From a virus (taxonomy: Duplodnaviria > Heunggongvirae > Uroviricota > Caudoviricetes): a stretch of DNA of 9,910 bases. A model generated the notes under the pieces. The model made no database searches. It was not told the DNA's origin and worked only from the letters and a program-made list of their open reading frames with translations. A program made the translations under genes and the position numbers. Below are positions 1 through 9,910 of the stretch, piece after piece; position 1 is the stretch's first letter, and each line of letters opens with the position of its first letter. The stretch spans positions 1 to 9,910 of IMG/VR virus record IMGVR_UViG_2713896897_000004, one strand, 5' to 3'.

Positions 1-196
1 CTGTTACTGGTCGATTTAAGTCAACCTTTACCGCTGATTCGTGGAACAGATACTCTCTTCCATCCTTAACCGGAGGAGGGAATATCCTGCACTCGCGTAC
101 CCATCGACGAACTGTTTCAAGGCTTCTTGGGCGTCGCTGGCGTGCGTTCCACTCCTGAAGTGTCAAGTACATCGCAAAGTCTCCGCAATTACACGC

Positions 197-219
197 AAGA
201 AAAGCCGCATTGATGCGGC
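197..219 (-). terminator. Putative rho-independent terminator after the 114-aa gene
   Basis: Plus strand aagaaaa-GCCGCA-ttga-TGCGGC: a 6-bp GC-rich stem with 4-nt loop. On the minus strand the hairpin is followed by TTTTCTT, about 56 nt downstream of the stop at 278. Confidence 0.5.
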
Positions 220-277
220 AATGGTAGGTCTGGATATCTTGAGAAATGAACAGGCCTCATTGAGTGTGAGGCTGTGG

Positions 278-622
278 TTAGTCCTTGCGTAGCTCGCTAA
301 TTCTTCTGTAAGTCTCTGGTGCTTTGTTTCCGTGTATCTTCATTTCAGACTTCAACAGAGCGACGAGGGAATCCCATTCGTTGAGGATGCCTTTGAATGC
401 CGGAACGCGCTTTGCAACCTTGTCGAATGAATCTCTGATTTCTGGAATCTGCTCAACAAGTGCAACGCATCGCCGGAAGTCTGCTGCGTCATGTGGAGCG
501 CCGAAGTGATGACCATAGATATTCTTTTTCAGTCCACATGCGATTGAGGCAAGAGTTGCGCTACTGATGCCAACATCGCCAGTCGATTGCCATTTCAAAA
601 CCTTCATAGCCAAATCTGACAT
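278..622 (-). CDS. Hypothetical protein (114 aa), distal pL-operon accessory gene
   Basis: ATG at 622 with GGAGA 7 nt upstream; intact ORF followed by the terminator hairpin. No family recognised. Confidence 0.55.
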   Translation of the reverse strand: MSDLAMKVLKWQSTGDVGISSATLASIACGLKKNIYGHHFGAPHDAADFRRCVALVEQIPEIRDSFDKVAKRVPAFKGILNEWDSLVALLKSEMKIHGNKAPETYRRISELRKD

Positions 623-780
623 TTCTTGTCTCCATAAAACAAAACCCGCCGTAGCGAGTTCAGATAAAAGAAATCCCCGCGAGTGCGAGGATTGTTATTG
701 TCTTTTCTTCGTGCATTTGTCGCACTTTCGGCACCATCCAGATAGGCACATCCGTCCGCAATTAACACATATAGGCCACA

Positions 781-1059
781 TCATTTTTCCTCTTTTGGTT
801 TATGAATCTGAATGGTCATGCCGCTTTGAGTGGTGACTACAATGACAGAACCAGGCTGAAGACTGTTAAGATTGAATGCTTCGTAAAACGAATCCAAGGC
901 CAGCGTTTTTTTATTCTTTCGGTTCCACCAACGCCATCCCTTGCTACAGGCTACACTGACAATCCACTGCCCACTCCTGTAAGCCATATAAAACCAGATG
1001 AGCAAAACCTGAAGGAAGGCCATCCAGTCAATAATCGTATATTTCGCGAAGGAGTCCAT
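781..1059 (-). CDS. Small predicted membrane protein (92 aa)
   Basis: ATG at 1059 overlaps the upstream gene's TGA (TGATG); AGGAGGTG 5 nt upstream. N-terminal hydrophobic segment IIDWMAFLQVLLIWFYMAY followed by a basic stretch. The ORF track's longer 141-aa version starts inside the upstream gene and is rejected. Confidence 0.55.
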   Translation of the reverse strand: MDSFAKYTIIDWMAFLQVLLIWFYMAYRSGQWIVSVACSKGWRWWNRKNKKTLALDSFYEAFNLNSLQPGSVIVVTTQSGMTIQIHKPKEEK

Positions 1060-1838
1060 CAATTCACCTCCTGCGGCGGTTCTGGTAGCGGCATCCAGAA
1101 CAAGACGTTCCCTAACCACGATAAAGTGCCGTCGCTCAACTCCACGTATTCCCCTTGTACCTGTCCTGCCATATACTCGCCGTGCTTTGAATAAATTAAA
1201 ACCCAATCGTCTTGAGCGGGAATTCGCTCACTACAGCTTATCCAACTATCCGGAGTTACCGGAGTTGGTCCATCGAATTCGGGCATGTCAGGACCTTTTC
1301 TGATAGCTTTAGCCAGCTCCAGCGGGTCATCGTAAAGCCAGTCGCCAGTTTGTGGGTGATTTGCTTCTGCAAGCTGCGCAGCCCATTCAAGACCATCTTT
1401 TTGACCTTGGAGATAATCAAGCGGCAACTCTTCATGATTACTTGCAGGTTCGGCACTATGAAGCATGGCGGCGCGGCAGGCGTTCCAGCCAGCTGTTCGC
1501 CCAAGCGCGTAAACTTCAGATGGATCAAGATAATCAATGTCATGCCCGTCCTCATCGTCGTTCTCAGGTAATGCAGCAGGTACTACTGGTACTGGAGGGG
1601 CGGCATAAACAGGAATAACGTCCGATTGATCTTTATTGCTTTCATCCGTCAAAGCCCAGAATAATTTTCCGGCCGGATGTTTGAAAATATAAGCAACTGG
1701 CTCTGCTTCCAGTGATGCCAGTGCAATTCGTGCCAGTTCTTCCGCTTCTTCTGCTGGCAGTACAACGTTGCTACCAGGTCCGTATGTTTCGCGCCACTGC
1801 TGGATTGTCAGCAGGCGTTCTTTGGTAATAGTGGTCAT
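1059..1838 (-). CDS. Phage accessory protein with C-terminal DUF551-like domain (259 aa)
   Basis: ATG at 1838 with AAGGTGA 8 nt upstream. The C-terminal W/P-rich segment (DSWISCSERIP...WVLIY...WLGNVLFWMPLPEPP) resembles the phage DUF551 domain as I recall it. Confidence 0.65.
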   Translation of the reverse strand: MTTITKERLLTIQQWRETYGPGSNVVLPAEEAEELARIALASLEAEPVAYIFKHPAGKLFWALTDESNKDQSDVIPVYAAPPVPVVPAALPENDDEDGHDIDYLDPSEVYALGRTAGWNACRAAMLHSAEPASNHEELPLDYLQGQKDGLEWAAQLAEANHPQTGDWLYDDPLELAKAIRKGPDMPEFDGPTPVTPDSWISCSERIPAQDDWVLIYSKHGEYMAGQVQGEYVELSDGTLSWLGNVLFWMPLPEPPQEVN

Positions 1839-1840
1839 AG

Positions 1841-2032
1841 CTATTTCACCTTAATCTCAACATTTCGCAGCTTTAGCTCTACTGGCAGGTCTGACTTTCC
1901 GGTTAATGCTAATGCGAGATTTTCTGGAGTAATGAGAGCAGTTATTGTTTTCCCCCTCGCCAGACGAATAATCATTCGTATCTCGCAATCGTCACATGCT
2001 CCCGGTCGAACAATTGAGATTTGTCCGTTCAT
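1841..2032 (-). CDS. Hypothetical small protein (63 aa)
   Basis: ATG at 2032 lies 1 nt after the upstream TGA, with AAGGAG 6-7 nt upstream. The track's 90-aa version begins inside the upstream gene. Confidence 0.5.
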   Translation of the reverse strand: MNGQISIVRPGACDDCEIRMIIRLARGKTITALITPENLALALTGKSDLPVELKLRNVEIKVK

Positions 2033-2033
2033 C

Positions 2034-2702
2034 TCACTCTCCTTTGATGCGAATGCCTGCGGCGCGTGGCACATTAACTTCCACGATGCGCACTGTTGGT
2101 TTGTACATCTCAATCGCTGTCAACCAGTCAGCTCCTGTCATGCGCTTTTCCGCATCGCCATTAGTCCACTGAACCGGTACACCAATAGCCTTCATCGCGA
2201 TTTCTATTTCCCCGGCAATGGCGCTTTTTCCGCAACCAGTAAAACCAGAAACAACGACAAGAACTTCACCTTTGGCTGGTTTTATTTCCCGTGCTTCCAG
2301 TTCTGCAATGCGCTTACTTCCATCCGAGATAACACCTTCGTAATACTCACGCTGCTCGTTGAGTTTTGATTTTGCTGCTTCAAGCTCAACGCGCAGCTTC
2401 CCAACCGTAAGCGCAATATCCTCGTTCTCCTGGTCGCGGCGTTTGATGTATTGCTGGTTTCTTTCCAGCTCATCCAGCAGCGCCTGCACTACTTCAGGGT
2501 TGAAAGCTGCGATATAACGAGCGTTGTTCTCTGCGTTTTTCTGTCCATCAAAGCCGGTCCATTTGATAACGTCTTCACATCGTTTATCACCAGGTGTATG
2601 CACCGCATATGTACCAGTACCAGACGAAATAAATGCGACCCATTCACCCTGTGTTGCCTTTTCTGCCGCATCACGCAGTGCCTGATAGTCAATTTTGCTC
2701 AT
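2034..2702 (-). CDS. Ead/Ea22-like phage accessory protein (222 aa)
   Basis: ATG at 2702 overlaps the upstream stop (ATGA). The N-terminus MSKIDYQALRDAAEKATQGEW matches my recollection of the Ead/Ea22-like N-terminal signature; the central region is coiled-coil-like. Confidence 0.55.
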   Translation of the reverse strand: MSKIDYQALRDAAEKATQGEWVAFISSGTGTYAVHTPGDKRCEDVIKWTGFDGQKNAENNARYIAAFNPEVVQALLDELERNQQYIKRRDQENEDIALTVGKLRVELEAAKSKLNEQREYYEGVISDGSKRIAELEAREIKPAKGEVLVVVSGFTGCGKSAIAGEIEIAMKAIGVPVQWTNGDAEKRMTGADWLTAIEMYKPTVRIVEVNVPRAAGIRIKGE

Positions 2703-2932
2703 TGTGCCTCCTCGATTTCGTCCCATTCCACCCAGGCATTCTCTCCATCAGCATCGATTTCACCTTTGTGACCGCATTTGGAACAGACAGCCTCATCACC
2801 CGCCCACAAAGAATCTTTGGTTACCGACCATCCTGTTACCTTGGCTTTGCCGTGCTGGCACTTAGGGCAATCATCAAGCCATTCGACTTCGACTGTTGAA
2901 GGACCAAATCCATGTTCAGTTCGGATGCTCAT
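2699..2932 (-). CDS. Small zinc-ribbon protein (77 aa)
   Basis: ATG at 2932 overlaps the upstream TGA (ATGA). Two Cys pairs, CPKC and CSKC, give a CxxC...CxxC zinc-ribbon pattern. Confidence 0.55.
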   Translation of the reverse strand: MSIRTEHGFGPSTVEVEWLDDCPKCQHGKAKVTGWSVTKDSLWAGDEAVCSKCGHKGEIDADGENAWVEWDEIEEAQ

Positions 2933-3474
2933 AACTGAACTCCTTTGCGAAGCTGCTCCGCACAATGCAGCAGGGCGTCCGTCGCTTCTTTCACCGTAAC
3001 GATGTCGCCATCGTCCAGCCTGGCAACCGTCGCGTCCTTAACGAACACCGAGCAAAGGTCATTAAACGCCTGCGCCCGTACTTCAGCCAAGAAAGCGTCG
3101 GTGGCTGTGGTTTCGATATCGTTAATTTCAGGAAGAATCTCTTCCCATGTAGCGATATCGCCATTCAAATGCCATCCGGCAATTCCACTGGAGTTATCCG
3201 CAACACTCCGAACGGCTTCAATAGTTTCATGCATTGCCGCATTCTCCGCAGCCAGCACCGAAAACTTCTCGTGTGCCAACTTAACAGCCGCATCAGCCTG
3301 CTTAATTGACTCAATCGCTTTCTGGTGGTCTTCGGACAGAGCCGAAATCTTGGCCTCCGCTGCAGCAAATTTACGCACCAGATATTCAGCGTTTGTTTCG
3401 TTAAGCTTTAAATCTCGTGGGATGCATTTACCTTTCAGGAATCCATCCATCTCAATTAGTGACATTTGTTTCAT
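2929..3474 (-). CDS. Hypothetical protein (181 aa)
   Basis: ATG at 3474 (second in-frame ATG at 3465), with the stop overlapping the next start. No family recognised. Confidence 0.55.
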
Positions 3475-3651
3475 TTCTTCCCACTCCGCAACATCGCATT
3501 CAGATATTTGTTTTGATTCACTGATGGAAAAGAATTTCTCTTAAGCAATTCCTCTCTCGATGGCATTGGCTTTACGCGTTAGAGAATAATCATTTCTGCC
3601 GGAAGAATGCCGGGATTGTATGCAAGTCCTCTCATGGTAAATTCCTCTTTG

Positions 3652-3966
3652 TTAATTTATTCGTATGCCTGCTCTTTCTTCATCGAGTTTTTTTAGCTTG
3701 TATCGCATAGCTCTTACTGAATAAATTGAGCGGCAGGTTGCAATTGCTATTTCTTCCGCGGTGAACTTACCGAAAAGTGATACTTCGGCTCTTGTCCATC
3801 GTCTTCCACGAAGTCGGCTAACAATGTCAGCGCCAATCCTTGTTGCTTTCGCCATAACTGCTTTTTCAGTCCTTTCCAGTTTTTCAGCGATAACTTCAAC
3901 TGGCATTGTCGCCGCTACTTCGCGCAAGAAATCGACTTCCCATTTCTCCCATGGAGTCTTTTTCAT
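3652..3966 (-). CDS. Hypothetical protein (104 aa), possible DNA-binding protein with two W-x3-E-V-x2-L repeats
   Basis: ATG at 3966, 11 nt after the Gp157-like stop. Internal repeat WEKWEVDFLREV / RRWTRAEVSLFGKF resembles tandem Myb/SANT-like helices. Weak SD. Confidence 0.5.
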   Translation of the reverse strand: MKKTPWEKWEVDFLREVAATMPVEVIAEKLERTEKAVMAKATRIGADIVSRLRGRRWTRAEVSLFGKFTAEEIAIATCRSIYSVRAMRYKLKKLDEERAGIRIN

Positions 3967-3977
3967 AGGCGATACCG

Positions 3978-4460
3978 TTATTTGATAAGAAGTGAAGGTT
4001 TCCCAACTTTGAGTTGAGCGCCGGGGATATTTATTCCTGCTTTTAGTTGGTGTTTGATTGCCAACTTGTCGGCTTTAATTGTTGTTTCAAACTCAACGTA
4101 TTCAGGAGGAAGGGCGCTTGAGTCGATGATTTCTACAGTTTCTGACGGTTTGCGGATTGTTACCTGGTGAATACCTGCTCGCATCTTTTTCTTGCCAACC
4201 ATTTCAAGCGATGACGCTATATATGATTTGATGCTGTCAATCTTATTTTGAATTACTGCGGCTCGTTCATTCAGTGACTTTGCCTCTTCCTTGAGGCGTT
4301 CAGCATAACCAGATTCATTTTTAATAATGGCGAGAAGTTGCTCTATTTTATCGGTAAATTCTCCTTCCATGCCTTCTATTGTGTCAGCAATCATCTCTGG
4401 TTCTAAATCTGAATCCATCAATTTTGCGTATTCATTGGCTATTTCATATAGTTTGCTCAC
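3978..4460 (-). CDS. Sipho_Gp157-like coiled-coil protein (RecT-associated)
   Basis: Likely start is GTG at 4460 with GGAGG 6 nt upstream; the track's start at 4466 is a TTG. N-terminal LYEIANEYAKL...IADTIEGMEGE...LKEEAKSLNERAA resembles the Gp157 family pattern. Confidence 0.6.
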   Translation of the reverse strand: MSKLYEIANEYAKLMDSDLEPEMIADTIEGMEGEFTDKIEQLLAIIKNESGYAERLKEEAKSLNERAAVIQNKIDSIKSYIASSLEMVGKKKMRAGIHQVTIRKPSETVEIIDSSALPPEYVEFETTIKADKLAIKHQLKAGINIPGAQLKVGKPSLLIK

Positions 4461-5355
4461 TGGCAACCTCCAGTTTCGCTTTGCATTCCATGTAAATGGC
4501 TTGTACGTTCTGCTGCAATTTCATTCCAGATGTCAGGCGATATGCTTCTGCAAAATATCGCTTCAAATCATCCATGTTTTCTGCCTGAGCCATTTCATCA
4601 CAAAGAAGTTGTGCTTTATCCATTATTTCCTGCTGGTGTTTCCGTTCATCTTCGCGGATATCTTCCTCTGATTTGTGCGGCATAACTGGTTCAGTCCACA
4701 CACCTTCTTCTTCGTTTAGTACGTGAATAGCACTATCAAGACGTAATGCCTTAGGCCAATACTTGCTTGCACGCTTTACGACCGTCTTTCGCGCCATCTC
4801 ATTCCAGTGATTTACCCATGGTCCTTTATCGCTGAATGCTGCCTTGCTTGTTTTCCTTACAGCCTCAATTTCAGCCAGACTCATCTCTTCCGTTAGATAA
4901 TCACCTGCTGGCGTCTTAACTGTGCAGTAAACGCCAACGATATCACCACGATCACCGAAGGCGGTGTATTTATGGGTTGGTGCTTTATCAAGCCCGTTTG
5001 ACTCATAGGTATCGTTAGCATGAACAAGTTTTGCCTGACCCCATGAGATAACACCAGACTCCATTGCAATATGGAGCAATCCCATATAGCTGATATCAAG
5101 GCAAACCATGCCATCGCGCGGAACCAGATAAGCCAGTTTGCTTGCAGGGTTTAAAGTGATGCCGATCGCCGCAACGTTGATGATAGCGTTCTGTGCGCTG
5201 GTTGGATTTGCCAGTGCTGTTTTAGCCAGGTAATCGTTTTTCTGGAAATACTGAATTGCAAACTGGCTTTCCTTAGCCCATGTCACCGTCTGTTCAGTCA
5301 ATACTCCGCAGAATAACTGCTCTTGCTGTTTAACGAATTCAACGATATTGCTCAT
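4444..5355 (-). CDS. recT: RecT-family single-strand annealing recombinase (303 aa)
   Basis: Motif GPWVNHWNEMARKTVVKRASKYWP matches the RecT core (GPWVTHWEEMAKKTAIRRLFKYLP in Rac RecT, as recalled). ATG at 5355 with GGAGAA 6 nt upstream; ATGA overlap with the upstream gene. Confidence 0.85.
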   Translation of the reverse strand: MSNIVEFVKQQEQLFCGVLTEQTVTWAKESQFAIQYFQKNDYLAKTALANPTSAQNAIINVAAIGITLNPASKLAYLVPRDGMVCLDISYMGLLHIAMESGVISWGQAKLVHANDTYESNGLDKAPTHKYTAFGDRGDIVGVYCTVKTPAGDYLTEEMSLAEIEAVRKTSKAAFSDKGPWVNHWNEMARKTVVKRASKYWPKALRLDSAIHVLNEEEGVWTEPVMPHKSEEDIREDERKHQQEIMDKAQLLCDEMAQAENMDDLKRYFAEAYRLTSGMKLQQNVQAIYMECKAKLEVASEQTI

Positions 5356-5663
5356 GCAGCTTCTCCATAAATATGTCTGCGTTTGAATATTGCGAAGGCA
5401 TATTCAGCCTTAACTCTTTCGGTTATTGCATCCCAGAACCATTCAGCGGCTTTTTCCTGATAGTTACAGTCATCATCTTCCAGCCAGTCGATAGCGTCCT
5501 TAGTGTGTTCATCTGGTTTATATGAGCGAAGCATTTCGCTTATTGGGTCGCAACGTTTGCAGAGGCGATCAACTTCACTGTTGATTCGCTCGTAATCTTC
5601 ATCAGTAAAACTTGCGATTATTTGCGATATTTCACGCTTATCATTCAGAGTCAGAATCATCAT
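5352..5663 (-). CDS. Hypothetical acidic protein (103 aa) in the gam-equivalent slot
   Basis: ATG at 5663 with AGGAG upstream. About 24 Asp/Glu against 15 Lys/Arg. Sits immediately upstream of recT. Confidence 0.6.
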   Translation of the reverse strand: MMILTLNDKREISQIIASFTDEDYERINSEVDRLCKRCDPISEMLRSYKPDEHTKDAIDWLEDDDCNYQEKAAEWFWDAITERVKAEYAFAIFKRRHIYGEAA

Positions 5664-5744
5664 CTTTCTCCTGTTCTTTGTGCTGATTGAGCATTTTGTT
5701 CATCTGACGAATGAATTCTTCGTCTTACCAGTTATCTGTAAAAC

Positions 5745-5897
5745 TCATTTCCTGCGATACCACGGAAGGTTGATAGCTGATTTCATCGCTTTATTTGCTT
5801 CAAGCCACATTTTGGAATCACCAATAAATCTGGCTATTACTGCTTTGTTTTGTGCTGCACGAAGCATCTGGTGATTGATGGCTATTTCATTGCGCAT
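5745..5897 (-). CDS. Kil-like small protein (50 aa), candidate host cell-division inhibitor
   Basis: Not in the ORF track; found by hand translation: MRNEIAINHQMLRAAQNKAVIARFIGDSKMWLEANKAMKSAINLPWYRRK. ATG at 5897 with GGAGG 4 nt upstream. It overlaps the cIII 3' end by 16 nt in another frame, the arrangement I recall for cIII/kil in lambda. Confidence 0.4.
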   Translation of the reverse strand: MRNEIAINHQMLRAAQNKAVIARFIGDSKMWLEANKAMKSAINLPWYRRK

Positions 5898-6016
5898 AAC
5901 GCCTCCAGTTGTTTCTTTGCTGCTCTGATTAATTGTTTAACTCGGCGTGATAATTCAGATTCGTGCGGGTAGAAAGCGGACATGACGCCGCTACCCGCGA
6001 GCTGAAAGTGCATCAT
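5882..6016 (-). CDS. cIII: cIII-like protein (44 aa), FtsH (HflB) protease inhibitor
   Basis: ATG-ATG at 6016/6013 with AAGGAG 6 nt upstream. PHESELSRRVKQLIRAAKKQLEAL aligns with the lambda CIII core PSESLLERITRKLRDGWKRLIDIL. The track's 79-aa version starts upstream of a terminator hairpin. Confidence 0.6.
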   Translation of the reverse strand: MMHFQLAGSGVMSAFYPHESELSRRVKQLIRAAKKQLEALCAMK

Positions 6017-6082
6017 GGGTAACTCCTTATATTTGATTGCATAACGAAAACGCCTCGAGTGAAGCGTTATTGGTATGCATAT

Positions 6083-6106
6083 AAAAAAGCCCTCACACTG
6101 GAGGGC
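6083..6106 (-). terminator. Rho-independent terminator (tL-type) just upstream of cIII
   Basis: Plus strand aaaaaa-GCCCTC-acactg-GAGGGC: on the minus strand a 6-bp GC stem is followed by TTTTTTAT. Confidence 0.5.
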
Positions 6107-6168
6107 AAAGAAGATTTCCAATAATCAGAACAAGTCGGCTCCTGTTTAGTTACGAGCGACATTGCTCC

Positions 6169-6196
6169 GTGTATTCACTCGTTGGAATGAATACAC
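6169..6196. repeat. Inverted repeat with 9-bp arms (GTGTATTCA-N10-TGAATACAC)
   Basis: Perfect 9-bp arms read directly from the sequence; followed on the plus strand by a T-rich tract. Function unknown. Confidence 0.4.
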
Positions 6197-6223
6197 AGTG
6201 CTGTGTTTATTCTGTTGTTTATG

Positions 6224-6251
6224 CCAAAAATAAAGGCCGACTATGCGGCCT
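6224..6251 (-). terminator. Rho-independent terminator (tL1-like) after the membrane-protein gene
   Basis: Plus strand ccaaaaataaa-AGGCCG-actatg-CGGCCT: on the minus strand a 6-bp stem is followed by TTTATTTTTGG, right after the TAA at 6256. Confidence 0.55.
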
Positions 6252-6255
6252 GAAA

Positions 6256-6705
6256 TTACTTAACCAATGATGCTGCATATTCGATAAGGTAAAGCTTTGG
6301 GGCCAGCAAAATTTTTAACCATGTCATATTGGTTACTACAGCAATAATAAAGCTTACCCACAGAACAAAAACTGCAGCTAATGGTAAGATTAGAAAACTA
6401 ATCTCACCGTTACTTTCCCAAATCATAGTCGGTTTGTATTTAGTCTTCCCCTTATCCCATGACCATCCTTCATCATCGAACTTACCAATTTCAACTTTTT
6501 GGTACTGTTTCTTCATAAACCAGAAAACCAGCGGGATTGTTAAAATGGCTATTAATGTTTTAATCAGACTGTCAACCATATTCCATAGCAGCAACTGATG
6601 AACAACATCAGGAATCTGTGCCTGGCTAAATGAGACAGCTGTGTCTATTCCATTACTGGCTTTTTGCAATAGTTCTATGAGAATCTTATTTGCCTGTTCT
6701 TCCAT
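6256..6705 (-). CDS. Two-TM inner-membrane protein (149 aa), putative superinfection-exclusion protein
   Basis: ATG at 6705 with GAGGTGA 5 nt upstream, overlapping the N stop. Two hydrophobic helices (LIKTLIAILTIPLVFWFM and ISFLILPLAAVFVLWVSFIIAVV). It sits immediately downstream of N, as sieB does in lambda and P22; the assignment is by position and topology only. Confidence 0.65.
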   Translation of the reverse strand: MEEQANKILIELLQKASNGIDTAVSFSQAQIPDVVHQLLLWNMVDSLIKTLIAILTIPLVFWFMKKQYQKVEIGKFDDEGWSWDKGKTKYKPTMIWESNGEISFLILPLAAVFVLWVSFIIAVVTNMTWLKILLAPKLYLIEYAASLVK

Positions 6706-6713
6706 ATATCACC

Positions 6714-7049
6714 TCAAATAAGTGGTTTGCTGCCTAATTTCATTTTCTGGCGACCAACACAAGTCACCCCCATTTCACTGCGTGGCTTGCGGTAGTAAAT
6801 ACGGTTCTGTTTACGCTCGACTTCTTCTGCCTTCTTGCAGCGAAGGCTTCCGAGTGATATTGCTTTTTCAGAAAGGCTTAAACGCTTTCTTGGGGCCTCC
6901 TGAACAGGTTCCTCACTGTCTGTGCCGAAGATAGAATCAATGATGTTACAGATAGCATCACGCTCAATAGCAAGCTTTCTGCGCCGCTCATGACGGCGAG
7001 TTTTGGCATTTCCTGCAAATGTTGATTTTCCGTACACGATTACCGTCAT
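6714..7049 (-). CDS. N: N-type transcription antitermination protein (111 aa)
   Basis: From ATG 7049 (GAGGA 8 nt upstream), residues 13-30 read GNAKTRRHERRRKLAIER, matching the P22 N arginine-rich motif as I recall it. The C-terminus YYRKPRSEMGVTCVGRQKMKLGSKPLI parallels lambda N's WYSKPGERGITCSGRQKIKGKSIPLI. The track's 139-aa ORF begins at a GTG at 7133 in the leader. Confidence 0.85.
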   Translation of the reverse strand: MTVIVYGKSTFAGNAKTRRHERRRKLAIERDAICNIIDSIFGTDSEEPVQEAPRKRLSLSEKAISLGSLRCKKAEEVERKQNRIYYRKPRSEMGVTCVGRQKMKLGSKPLI

Positions 7050-7140
7050 GATGTTTTCCTCATGTGAAATGGCTTTGGTGGTGATGCGCCAGATGCTGAT
7101 CTTCTGGTTGCTGTCGTTGCAGCTGCAATTCACATCACCG

Positions 7141-7159
7141 CCAAACCCATCTCGTTTGG
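7141..7159 (-). promoter_or_regulatory. Hairpin in the N leader (CCAAAC-N7-GTTTGG)
   Basis: A 6-bp inverted repeat between boxB and the N start; it could structure the leader, as the RNase III site does in the lambda N leader. Confidence 0.3.
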
Positions 7160-7168
7160 TATCTGTTT

Positions 7169-7202
7169 GCGCTTTGTCAGCGCCCCATCGAAGTTAAAGA
7201 GC
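7169..7202 (-). promoter_or_regulatory. nutL site: boxA plus boxB hairpin
   Basis: On the minus strand, GCTCTTTAAC (boxA consensus CGCTCTTTA) is followed after 9 nt by GCGCTGACAAAGCGC, a 5-bp stem with GACAA pentaloop, identical to the P22 boxB as I recall it. Confidence 0.7.
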
Positions 7203-7248
7203 CTGCCAATCTGTTCCGTTTAGCTTCCAGCTTCCTGCTGACGTGACA

Positions 7249-7294
7249 ATAATGAACCAATAGTTCGATATTATCAAGAACTATTGGTACGAAA
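7249..7294 (-). promoter_or_regulatory. Putative pL promoter with overlapping operator-like inverted repeat (OL)
   Basis: Minus-strand -35 TTGATA (7277..7272) and -10 CATTAT (7254..7249) with a 17-nt spacer, about 40 nt upstream of boxA. A perfect 10-bp inverted repeat CCAATAGTTC-N11-GAACTATTGG (7257-7287) overlaps the -35. GAACTATTGGTACGAAA (7278-7294) partly resembles the OR site. Confidence 0.35.
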
Positions 7295-7457
7295 TTTTTG
7301 TGATTTATTAATGCAGCGAGATATAATTTTGATATATAAGGAAATTTATTTTTGTAAATGCTGCAGATTGGTCTGTAGTTGGAGGGGGTATTGCTGGTGA
7401 GTTGGTTCGCGGTTTACCACATTTGCGGCTATTAAATATGGGAGGGCGATCGTGAGG

Positions 7458-7487
7458 CAAAGAAAACCCGGCTCGGTGGCCGGGTTT
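7458..7487 (-). terminator. Rho-independent terminator (tImm-like) after the 348-aa gene
   Basis: Plus strand AAACCCGGC-tcggtg-GCCGGGTTT: on the minus strand a 9-bp stem is followed by TTTTCTTTG, 9 nt after the stop at 7496. Confidence 0.7.
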
Positions 7488-7495
7488 GGAGTGCA

Positions 7496-8542
7496 TCACT
7501 CTGGTTCGCTGGGGAATATATTTATCAATTGCCCTGTTGAAATGTGTCCATTTTCTACAACCTCTAGGTATGAAATTTCAACAGTTGATTCTTTGGCTAC
7601 AGCATTCAAAAACTCAAGAAGCTCATCAGTAGATGTTATGTCGGCTGAGGTTTTTATGGTGAAAGATTCACCATTTGAAACCCTTGTGACGTCAATATTT
7701 ATGTCCTGATTTGTTTCTCCCGAGCGACGAACGCCCGTGACATAAAAGTTATCTCTTCTAGTTTCCTTTTTTCGATCAATTGATTGCCTTTGGTTTAAGG
7801 TATTCAACTGTTCTCTATTTACCACTCTCTGACCAATTGTTACCTTCTCAACTGACGAGTCTTGAGCAAGCTTTTTAAGCAACTTGCTTTTACCATCCTC
7901 GCCGTGAGCCAGAACCTCTCTGCTAATGTTTGTTTGACCGCTAATCAACAACTTGAGCACATTGTCTTGTGCTTCGTTTACCGCTTTGGTGCTTTTTTCC
8001 ACCAATTGCACCTGAGAATCTTGGTCATGTCGCTGTGTTTCGTAGTACTCATTGATCCACTTATAGCCTACCGTGCTGGCAGCTAAGACGATAGCGGCGA
8101 CGGCGCATAGTGCTTGCCTTCCTGTCATTTTGCCTATCGCTTGAGTTAACACTGTCACCACTCCGTTTACAATCGGATCTGAGTCACCATCCGCTTGGCT
8201 TGAGCCTTCGCTTATTCGGTAGACAATATCCAGCAAACCTTTCTCTGCATCTTTTAGCTTCTGCCGATTATGAGTGCTGTGACTGACTACCGTAAATGCT
8301 TTTTGTATTTCATGCGTAAGCTCTGCCATACCAAAAAGCATTGACGCAGTCAATGAAGAATTATATCTATTTGGATCGCCTTTTACATTAATATTGATCT
8401 TTGGCCATCCACTGAAAACTACGCTAGGGAATGTGAAGTCGCTTGAGTCGATATCCTTCCTTCCGAGCATTTCTGTTACAAAAGATACAAAGTCGTCTTC
8501 TGACTTGATAACATATTGTGCAGGTTGATCAATCACTGACAT
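7496..8542 (-). CDS. Uncharacterised 348-aa single-pass membrane protein in the rexAB-equivalent slot; candidate prophage exclusion or abortive-infection protein
   Basis: ATG at 8542 with AAGGA 7 nt upstream, 76 nt after the cI stop with no terminator between. One central hydrophobic helix (ALCAVAAIVLAASTVGYKWI) flanked by soluble domains of about 140 and 185 aa. Hand-counted GC is about 35-40% against about 48-50% in cI and recT. No motif I can assign. Confidence 0.8.
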   Translation of the reverse strand: MSVIDQPAQYVIKSEDDFVSFVTEMLGRKDIDSSDFTFPSVVFSGWPKININVKGDPNRYNSSLTASMLFGMAELTHEIQKAFTVVSHSTHNRQKLKDAEKGLLDIVYRISEGSSQADGDSDPIVNGVVTVLTQAIGKMTGRQALCAVAAIVLAASTVGYKWINEYYETQRHDQDSQVQLVEKSTKAVNEAQDNVLKLLISGQTNISREVLAHGEDGKSKLLKKLAQDSSVEKVTIGQRVVNREQLNTLNQRQSIDRKKETRRDNFYVTGVRRSGETNQDINIDVTRVSNGESFTIKTSADITSTDELLEFLNAVAKESTVEISYLEVVENGHISTGQLINIFPSEPE

Positions 8543-8618
8543 TCTTAATCCTTAACATCCATTCCTATCACCCAAACGTCTCTTTAGGCCACTGACTATC
8601 AGCTATGTGACGATGAAG

Positions 8619-9326
8619 TCACGAATTTTTCAGCCACTCCCTTGCCTCGATGTCATCCAGATGGCGAGATTGCTTCAGAATACCAGCCACATACTCCACC
8701 TTTGCTACTTGATGATAAGGCAACGTTATAGGTCTGTGGTCCTGGTTAATGCTTGTAAATTGGTATTCTCCATCTCTGTCATAGCCAAGAACCTTAATCA
8801 TGTTGTGTCCTTCAACGGTTCTGACAAACACCTCATCACCCGGGAATACTTTGGTGTTAGGCTCAATGAGTACATATTCTCCTGATTTTATTCTGGGCCA
8901 CATGCTGTCTCCTTTCACACGAAGACCAAAGGCATCTGGATCATCGCTATAAATTTTGAGCCACCCATCGCGCTCTTCGGTCATCTCGATGGCACCATCA
9001 ACACCAAGAATTGCCTCACCAACCACGCGCACTAACCCTTTTTTTAATTTGCCAACAAATGAAAGAGTATCTTCATCATTCGCTCCATTTAACGAAGTGC
9101 CGTGCTGAAGCCAAACAACATCAACGTTTAGAAATTTCGCAAGCGCATTCATTTTTTCCTGACGCGGTAAAGACTCAGCATTAAACCATTTGCTAACGCC
9201 TTTGGACGAAAGAGAAAGGGCACGGGCTATAGCCATCCCCCTACCATGTTCATCAAGACCAGCTTCTTTACAGGCTTGCGCTAGCCGCTGGGCGAATTCT
9301 TTGCGCACTTTTTCATTCTGAACCAT
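8619..9326 (-). CDS. cI: CI-type prophage repressor (HTH plus S24 LexA-like peptidase domain), 235 aa
   Basis: N-terminal HTH (RGMAIARALSLSSKGVSKWFN) and C-terminal S24 motifs (GDSMWP serine, MIKVL lysine). Divergent from cro across an operator region; the ATG at 9326 abuts an operator palindrome. Confidence 0.9.
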   Translation of the reverse strand: MVQNEKVRKEFAQRLAQACKEAGLDEHGRGMAIARALSLSSKGVSKWFNAESLPRQEKMNALAKFLNVDVVWLQHGTSLNGANDEDTLSFVGKLKKGLVRVVGEAILGVDGAIEMTEERDGWLKIYSDDPDAFGLRVKGDSMWPRIKSGEYVLIEPNTKVFPGDEVFVRTVEGHNMIKVLGYDRDGEYQFTSINQDHRPITLPYHQVAKVEYVAGILKQSRHLDDIEAREWLKNS

Positions 9327-9404
9327 GAGTACGATACTAAAGCACTTGCAAAAACTTTCAGTTCAACCATAATACGTACTGAAAGTACGAAAAAGGATAT
9401 TCCT
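9327..9404. promoter_or_regulatory. OR region: divergent PRM/PR with three palindromic operator-like sites
   Basis: Sites AGTACGATACT (9328-9338), AACTTTCAGTT (9353-9363) and CGTACTGAAAGTACG (9375-9389). Candidate PR is -35 TTGCAA (9346-9351) and -10 CATAAT (9368-9373) with a 16-nt spacer; the cro SD AAGGA is at 9393-9397. Confidence 0.65.
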
Positions 9405-9632
9405 ATGCAAAATCTTGATGAGCCGATTAAAGGTGTCGGCATCCCTGAAGTTGCGAAGGCTTGTGGAGTTAGCGAAAGGGCTGTCTATAAGTGGCTCAAA
9501 AACGGCTTCCTCCCTAAGACTGAGTTTTTTGGGAAAACTAAATACGCATCAAAAATCGAAGAGATTTCTGGTGGCAAATATCAAGCAAGCGAAATGCTTG
9601 AAATAAGCAAAAAGAACCTTCTGGCTGCATAA
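9405..9632 (+). CDS. cro: Cro-type repressor (75 aa)
   Basis: Small HTH protein (GIPEVAKACGVSERAVYKWLKNG) divergent from cI, with SD AAGGA 7 nt upstream. Confidence 0.85.
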   Translation: MQNLDEPIKGVGIPEVAKACGVSERAVYKWLKNGFLPKTEFFGKTKYASKIEEISGGKYQASEMLEISKKNLLAA

Positions 9633-9639
9633 GTAACAC

Positions 9640-9674
9640 CGCTCTTTATCAATCTGCACCGCCGACAACGCGGT
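9640..9674 (+). promoter_or_regulatory. nutR-like site: boxA plus boxB-like hairpin
   Basis: CGCTCTTTA (9640-9648) is followed after 9 nt by ACCGC-CGACAAC-GCGGT (9658-9674), a 5-bp stem whose loop contains GACAA, between cro and cII. Confidence 0.55.
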
Positions 9675-9738
9675 AACTAATTAAGCTCTCATCGAAAGAT
9701 GGGGATTAGTGATTATTTACCTATGGAAATAGTAAGAA

Positions 9739-9910
9739 ATGGAACAAACAAGTTACAGCAAACTATCACAGCGCGACGTTGATCGCGCAGAAACAGATTT
9801 ACTCATCAACCTGTCAACGCTTACACAGCGCGGTCTGGCAAAGATGATTGGCTGTCATGAATCGAAGATAAGCAGAACGGACTGGAGATTTATTGCTTCG
9901 GTCTTGTGTG
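9739..9910 (+). CDS. cII: CII-like transcriptional activator (partial, runs off the window end)
   Basis: Hand translation from ATG 9739 gives MEQTSYSKLSQRDVDRAETDLLINLSTLTQRGLAKMIGCHESKISRTDWRFIASVLC..., whose HTH region parallels lambda CII (ESALLNKIAMLGTEKTAEAVGVDKSQISRW). Absent from the ORF track because there is no stop in the window. Confidence 0.7.
   Translation, partial: MEQTSYSKLSQRDVDRAETDLLINLSTLTQRGLAKMIGCHESKISRTDWRFIASVLC

Follow-up and report, generated by a model that had tools for sequence, protein, structure and literature searches.

In lambda Red (gam-bet-exo) and Rac RecET, an exonuclease gene of the YqaJ/lambda Exo or RecE type lies adjacent to the annealase gene. Modules that do without a nuclease are common and published. 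In a survey of 325 lambdoid phages, Zheng, Casjens, Davidson, Amundsen and Smith (Genome Res 2025, PMC12315714) reported that '84 lack a nuclease gene' among 246 modules, that P22 and HK620 encode none, that a P22 functional type (anti-RecBCD plus annealase only) comprises 46 phages, and that annealase-only modules such as the EhrS_49 type exist. The same survey lists the module of phage HK140 as SAP-4 + MuGam without a nuclease or SSB (a protein that binds single-stranded DNA), and inspection based on AlphaFold 3 found no nuclease in it (PMC12315714). Here we analyse a recT-gp157 gene pair in 9,910 nt of tailed-phage DNA (IMG/VR record IMGVR_UViG_2713896897_000004, positions 1 to 9,910), which we call the window. 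The module is an ordinary lambdoid nuclease-free Rec type, catalogued and already known. Overall we lean towards reading it as a module of P22 type in which RecT would act with a Gam-like Gp157 on strands supplied by the host, and would dock onto Gp157 through its C-terminal tail.

The recT-gp157 pair and the search for an exonuclease

Two minus-strand open reading frames (ORFs), recT and gp157, fill exactly positions 3978-5355 of the window:

4444-5355, minus strand: recT, 303 aa (PF03837, phrog_148, TIGR00616)
4669-4710, minus strand: RecT linker, low confidence, residues ~216-229 (AlphaFold2 model)
4453-4668, minus strand: RecT C-terminal three-helix tail, residues ~230-301 (AlphaFold2 model and homologue context)
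3978-4460, minus strand: Sipho_Gp157 gene, 160 aa from GTG 4460 (PF05565, phrog_253)

Judged by its family matches, the product of 4444-5355 is a RecT-family single-strand annealing protein. It matches PF03837 over residues 31-217 (E 2.8e-32; 112.3 bits against a cut-off of 24), phrog_148 (E 1.3e-90) and TIGR00616 (E 1.6e-23; 83.7 bits against 52.65), together with a weak match to the solved RecT 7ub2 (E 0.0038, residues 34-213). Gp157 matches PF05565 over its full length (E 1.4e-37; 129.6 bits against 28.6), residues 5-162 aligning to profile positions 1-162. The longest gp157 ORF runs from 3978 to 4466; the true start is probably GTG 4460, because it would give the 160-aa length and the VSKLYEI start of the homologues and has a GGAG 8 nt before it. 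With this start gp157 overlaps the end of recT by 17 nt, and the two genes are therefore probably translationally coupled. The recT start in turn overlaps the stop of a 103-aa gene (ATGA).

Over recT-gp157 and the adjoining 103-aa and 104-aa genes, the window is ~97% identical to HK140, mEpX1, Kapi1, Gally and others. These four phages have the same gene order and the same overlaps as the window, and differ only in the surrounding mosaic (immunity region, ea genes). Their records annotate the pair as 'RecT' and 'Mu Gam-like end protection', and that of Gally also names an 'Anti-RecBCD protein 1, similar to P22 Abc1'. Of 5,426 complete E. coli genomes, 266 hold the four-gene block intact; none of the 5,426, and no phage record, contains all 9.9 kb of the window in one piece.

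We scanned the 18 plausible ORFs of the window with the hidden Markov models (HMMs) of Pfam, PHROGs and NCBIfam. None matched YqaJ, lambda Exo, RecE/DUF3799, PD-(D/E)XK, DnaQ or HNH families. PADLOC gave no match for the same 18 ORFs, Protein Data Bank (PDB) sequence searches with the 181-aa and 103-aa proteins returned nothing, and no SSB or oligonucleotide/oligosaccharide-binding (OB) fold match was found in the window. As positive controls, the same scans recovered YqaJ beside recT in Stx phage VT2phi_272 and Vibrio phage 1.198.B, and DUF3799/ExoVIII in Salmonella phage SEN22. Moreover, the intergenic gaps of the window are too short for a hidden nuclease gene. The far left end of the operon falls beyond the window; in Gally and mEpX1 the operon continues to xis/int with no nuclease annotations. 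Hence an exonuclease gene of the kind that adjoins the annealase in Red and RecET was not found beside recT. A preliminary description of this DNA had noted recT followed by a Gp157-like gene with no exonuclease in the operon, and had proposed an HMM check of the neighbouring ORFs; PF03837 and PF05565 fall where it placed them, and the check found no YqaJ, lambda Exo or RecE in the window. Its implication that the module is anomalous beside paired Red and RecET systems is not sustained: the absence of an exonuclease is not anomalous because the arrangement is catalogued and frequent.

The preliminary description would also have given way had a neighbour proved to be a divergent exonuclease, and the search lent that no support. 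A canonical two-component module could in principle be completed by the 103-aa, 104-aa, 181-aa EaE-like or 88-aa zinc-ribbon protein, several of which have no assigned function, and translational coupling ties the 103-aa gene to recT. We consider this very improbable. Four HMM libraries and the PDB sequence searches gave no nuclease match, neither the 103-aa nor the 104-aa protein is large enough for a YqaJ or RecE fold (the 104-aa one is a tandem helix-turn-helix protein), and inspection of HK140 by Zheng et al. likewise yielded no nuclease. Moreover, the two small genes are missing from most independent RecT-Gp157 cassettes: of ~17, the 103-aa gene occurs in 7 and the 104-aa gene follows Gp157 in 5. 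In SEN22 (our locus L003, 3196-5208) they enclose a DUF3799 RecE-type nuclease and a 189-aa phrog_11517 protein, the 103-aa gene lying upstream of the nuclease, and hence they do not replace one. Compared with window positions 3652-5663, the SEN22 arrangement is a clean cassette swap for recT-gp157. The 103-aa and 104-aa genes are optional; the module does not require them, and neither encodes a concealed nuclease. The annealase does have a partner, which is probably Gp157, a protein of another functional class than an exonuclease.

As in the P22 functional type, the window has an annealase (RecT), a Gp157 of the MuGam type and no nuclease or SSB match; the assignment depends on an anti-RecBCD activity of Gp157 that we infer. 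P22 (arf-erf-abc1-abc2) resembles the window in combining an annealase with an anti-RecBCD function without a phage exonuclease, in its operon position after kil and in having a gene of the PHROG that includes Abc1. However, its annealase is Erf rather than RecT, and its anti-RecBCD protein is Abc2, which binds RecC and is not a Gam-like end binder; homologues of Abc2 and Arf were not found in the window. Lambda Red and Rac RecET share the operon position and overall task, and Red-beta, like the window RecT, has a small C-terminal helical domain apart from the annealing core. Unlike both, the window has no 5'-3' exonuclease, and Gp157 follows the annealase in place of Exo.

Probable relationship of Gp157 to Mu Gam

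The PHROGs family phrog_253, 'Mu Gam-like end protection', matches Gp157 at E 1.3e-53. Direct comparison is less forthcoming: neither BLASTP nor a shallow profile comparison linked Gp157 significantly to Mu Gam, and Gp157 yields only PF05565 at E <= 0.1, without a match to the Phage_Mu_Gam HMM (PF07352) that Mu Gam itself matches at E 4e-42. We therefore compared profiles. A whole-library HMM search gave 12,985 representatives of the Gp157 family, of which 144 diverse ones formed a deep profile (effective number of sequences 5.2). Aligned with hhalign, this profile matched that of Mu Gam with a probability of 85.8% (E 5.4e-6); the alignment spans 99 columns in co-linear order and pairs residues 57-159 of Gp157 with 54-163 of Mu Gam. 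The signal lies in the C-terminal beta domain, which alone gave E 7.2e-5, compared with E 0.07 for the coiled coil. No control did better than E 0.063 when the Mu Gam profile was reversed (once) or shuffled (20 times). A Mu Gam profile extended with further sequences, among them the crystallised Desulfovibrio Gam 2p2u, gave 85.1% and E 6.2e-6, and 30 more shuffled controls reached E 0.11 at best. Deepening the Mu Gam alignment from the protein database brought in hardly any new diversity and did not alter the hhalign outcome. Taken together, these comparisons provide moderate, not decisive, profile-profile evidence that Gp157 may be a remote homologue of Mu Gam.

The AlphaFold2 (AF2) model of Gp157 (predicted local distance difference test, pLDDT, 83.7) shows a 67-residue helix (residues 23-89) and, after it, a small beta domain. 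The preliminary description's 'coiled-coil' gene thus captures the long helix and is incomplete, leaving out the beta domain and the probable membership among Mu Gam-like proteins. Mu Gam is of similar size (174 vs 160 aa), has the same long N-terminal helix and C-terminal beta domain, and likewise adjoins a phrog_323 gene (gp9/Abc1-like). The two belong to different Pfam families (PF07352 for Mu Gam), neither HMM nor BLAST comparison matches them directly, and Mu Gam lacks the annealase partner that nearly always accompanies Gp157. In Firmicutes phages, mu gam-like and gp157-like genes share a slot beside erf and sak4, which 'implies their analogous function' (PMC8093625). Mu Gam dimers bind DNA ends and block RecBCD loading (PMC12407980). 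On these sequence comparisons Gp157 is quite likely to be a Gam-like protein, and its predicted function is probably that of a dsDNA-end-binding, anti-RecBCD protein.

An alternative is that Gp157 is an accessory factor and not an end protector, loading RecT on SSB-coated DNA or serving as an adaptor for a host nuclease or helicase (RecJ, RecQ or a modified RecBCD). Fold searches with the Gp157 model recovered neither Gam nor Ku, and Gp157 relatives accompany four annealase families and RecE-like proteins, as a general cofactor would; P22, through Abc2, provides an actual case of a phage commandeering a host nuclease. We nevertheless regard it as unlikely. The profile similarity to Mu Gam is specific to the beta domain and beats all controls, Gp157 has the length and architecture of Mu Gam, the MuGam label was reached independently by PHROGs and by Zheng et al., and either a mu gam-like or a gp157-like gene can fill the same position.

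Foldseek searches with Gp157 also returned marginal matches (E 0.013-1.1) to phage proteins of 300-400 aa named PD-(D/E)XK, RecB-like or COG5377 exonucleases. Such hits, to which we give no weight as evidence, could stem from the long helix alone or from a Gp157-like domain that some phage exonucleases carry as a fusion. A distant Gp157 subfamily (30-35% identity) is encoded directly after a 600-760-aa protein in prophages of Serratia, Proteus, Xenorhabdus, Morganella, Pantoea and others (loci L035-L052 and L056; e.g. L038 1303-3980). The large protein matches phrog_2489 'exonuclease' and, more weakly, the RecE-type phrog_607; it has no Pfam domain, and RecT is not evident nearby. These proteins may be the 'RecE-2' that Zheng et al. 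call nuclease-domain-free.

The RecT tail, its association with Gp157 and a predicted mechanism

In the AF2 model of RecT the C-terminal tail forms three helices (residues 230-256, 261-274 and 280-301), with pLDDT of 82-91 over residues 241-290 and of ~30 in the linker. The tail lies outside the Pfam RecT domain and is the most confident part of the model; the RecT core is poorly modelled (shallow alignment). Matches covering at least 80% of RecT come from only 36 phage records. In Stx phages, phi80 and Vibrio/Aeromonas phages the similarity is confined to the core (59-77% identity, residues 1 to ~220), and the final ~80 residues are not shared. Searched alone, the tail was found in 24 phage records, exactly the 24 that carry the closest Gp157 (at least 56% identity), and where RecT cores 65-76% identical bear unrelated tails, YqaJ exonucleases follow them. 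In the Pantoea phage PdC23 a tail 56.5% identical over 46 residues (BLASTP E 5.7e-18) is borne by an Erf-family annealase (PF04404, E 6e-44), and the gene order is Erf-family annealase, HNH homing endonuclease, Gp157.

This association extends to larger datasets. On bacterial contigs, with one genome per species, RecT with the tail abuts a close Gp157 in 17/19 assessable loci, the two exceptions being an insertion sequence (IS) and a truncated RecT. A first scan of viral contigs returned near-identical copies only and was re-ranked around the PdC23 tail; Gp157 follows all of the distinct tail-bearing proteins (87/87). Over 159 loci, the identity of the tail correlates more strongly with that of Gp157 (r = 0.96) than with that of its own core (r = 0.73). 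In phages of Enterobacterales, Aeromonas and Pseudomonas, identity of the recT-gp157 pair itself lies between 53% and 99%. The C-terminal domain of Red-beta docks onto lambda Exo and SSB (PMC6393309); we found no literature linking an annealase tail to a Gam-like partner. From the genomic pattern, the association suggests that the RecT tail may dock onto Gp157. We further propose, tentatively, that the tail might be a dedicated, portable Gp157-docking module of an exonuclease-free 'end-tethered annealase', transferable between RecT and Erf and swapped when the core pairs with YqaJ. The linkage would also fit any direct partner of RecT, including the accessory factor considered above.

The co-divergence also bears on whether RecT acts alone at replication forks, as in oligonucleotide recombineering, while Gp157 does something unconnected, for example superinfection exclusion or the 'phage resistance' suggested by its historical Pfam description. 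Annealase-only modules of the EhrS_49 type exist, and some records of the Gp157 family carry the name 'resistance protein'. We take the 'resistance' label to trace to a cloned Sfi21 origin fragment and not to the protein. The 17-nt overlap of gp157 with recT, the co-divergence of Gp157 with the RecT tail, the lack of a PADLOC defence match and the position of gp157 beside a RecT, Erf, Sak or Sak4 annealase gene in every phage locus inspected or seen annotated all argue against such a role, which we judge distinctly unlikely.

Two further candidates were set aside. The Sak of Vibrio phage 1.148.O appeared similar by eye and by BLASTP (E 0.057) as a third tail-bearing family, but the tail HMM did not detect it (E 0.62), and it was dropped. 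An in-frame RecT-Gp157 fusion, one of the 87 tail-bearing proteins above, on IMG/VR contig 2713896732_000004 (locus L166, 2015-3136; junction ...KAKLEVT/VSKLYEI...) was rejected as a 'Rosetta stone', given that it needs only a 1-nt change and its RecT is N-terminally truncated; it is probably a decaying prophage or pseudogene, or an assembly artefact.

Degraded copies of this kind (truncated RecT in L033, the frameshifted L166, IS insertions in L023 and L044) and the prophage-like mosaic raise the idea that the module is a decayed, non-functional RecET or Red remnant that has lost its exonuclease. Neither ORF is damaged, however, and the two meet at a tight, conserved junction; the pair is maintained over the identity range and phage groups given above, and it is present in the plaque-forming phages HK140, mEpX1, Kapi1 and Gally. 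Moreover, exonuclease-paired relatives differ by domain swap and not by deletion. We find decay the least credible of the alternatives.

Other observations concern the same junction and pair. In PdC23 a Pfam-verified HNH_3 gene lies exactly between annealase and gp157 (L011 2540-3004), phage Louie (H10/H169) has a homing endonuclease there by annotation, and in L017 a 155-aa ORF occupies it (3037-3504); the annealase-gp157 junction seems to be a recurrent insertion site. Three contigs of 2-5 kb labelled Actinomycetes metagenome-assembled genome, Micromonospora and Streptomyces (L018, L022, L030) carry an enterobacterial-type recT-gp157 with Gp157 69-71% identical, most likely as assembly contamination.

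Under the P22-type reading that we favour, RecT would bind ssDNA and anneal complementary strands, as expected from its family membership. A Gp157 dimer would cap linear dsDNA ends and keep host RecBCD off phage DNA, which is what remote homology to Mu Gam and positional equivalence predict. Single strands would come from the host, by RecJ/RecQ-type resection or at replication forks and gaps, and not from a phage exonuclease. Lastly, as the genomic association suggests, the RecT tail may dock on end-bound Gp157 and so concentrate the annealase at protected ends, analogous to the docking of the Red-beta C-terminal domain on lambda Exo. Several points weigh against this reading. Resection at a capped end is the weakest link of the mechanism. 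The DNA coding for the tail abuts gp157, and linkage or co-inheritance alone could yield most of the pattern; PdC23 is the sole independent transfer of the tail, and in a Sak-family annealase beside a 54%-identical Gp157 the tail was undetected. The fold searches that recovered neither Gam nor Ku count here as well.

Operon context and implications

From the ORF listing and HMM scans, the minus strand of the window comprises a lambda-type immunity region and early-left (pL) operon in the order cI, N, cIII, kil, 103-aa gene, recT, gp157, 104-aa gene and ea genes. The other features of the window are:

9405-9632, plus strand: Cro-like gene, divergent from cI (Cro-like helix-turn-helix matches)
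8619-9326, minus strand: cI-type repressor, helix-turn-helix and S24 peptidase (PF00717 E 4.4e-16, PF01381)
7496-8542, minus strand: 348-aa gene (phrog_6191, function unassigned)
6714-7133, minus strand: N antiterminator (PF25694 N_peptide E 3.6e-26)
6256-6705, minus strand: 149-aa gene (phrog_3054, function unassigned)
5882-6121, minus strand: cIII (PF08134 E 7.8e-30, ORF residues 37-73)
5745-5897, minus strand: kil (PF06301 Lambda_Kil E 1.7e-20)
5352-5663, minus strand: 103-aa gene (phrog_3486 E 1.7e-59, function unassigned)
3652-3966, minus strand: 104-aa tandem helix-turn-helix gene (phrog_323 E 1.3e-20)
ea-type run: genes for 181-aa EaE-like, 88-aa zinc-ribbon, Ead/Ea22, 90-aa, DUF551, DUF4752 and 114-aa proteins

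The N gene marks this as an N-dependent pL operon, with pL transcription under N antitermination, and no terminator-like sites were found on the minus strand from kil to the ea genes. The cIII and N ORFs are longer than their Pfam domains (cIII 37-73, N peptide 29-104) and their true starts are probably internal ATGs; the apparent overlap of cIII and kil is real at the 3' end only. Between cI and N, the slot of rexAB in lambda, sits the 348-aa gene, which has no match in Pfam, NCBIfam or PADLOC and could be an exclusion or defence gene expressed in the lysogen. The 149-aa gene between N and cIII is hydrophobic and membrane-like in appearance, and was without match in Pfam and PADLOC. The count of Chi sites in the window (0 against 0.27 expected) is uninformative.

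Of the two genes flanking the pair, the 103-aa gene has no match in Pfam, NCBIfam or PDB. The family of the 104-aa gene, phrog_323, is also matched by P22 Abc1 (E 1.3e-23) and Mu gp9 (E 5.2e-29). Against Mu gp9 the 104-aa protein gave a weak, repeat-like BLASTP match (E 5e-5); against Abc1 BLASTP gave no alignment, and the name 'Abc1' holds for this gene at the level of the shared PHROG only. Members of phrog_323 adjoin anti-RecBCD or end-protection genes in each of these settings: Abc1 with abc2 in P22 (L004 26630-27254), gp9 with gam in Mu (L005 5482-6325) and the 104-aa gene (3652-3966) with gp157 in the window.

In summary, the nuclease-free arrangement as such is routine, and the association of the RecT tail with Gp157 is a modest addition to it. 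For recombineering, RecT is usually cloned with its "native exonuclease"; this class has none, and may need Gp157 for double-stranded substrates. A preprint on the Gabija defence system leads to the prediction that Gp157-type end binders would sensitise phage to Gabija, an effect reported for Mu Gam. How one annealase core serves different partners is a question left open by Zheng et al. (PMC12315714), and the tail-partner pattern, if confirmed, would help to explain it. If true, the tail would provide a sequence rule that predicts the partner of an annealase, and docking would extend the principle seen with the Red-beta C-terminal domain and Exo to a Gam-like partner.

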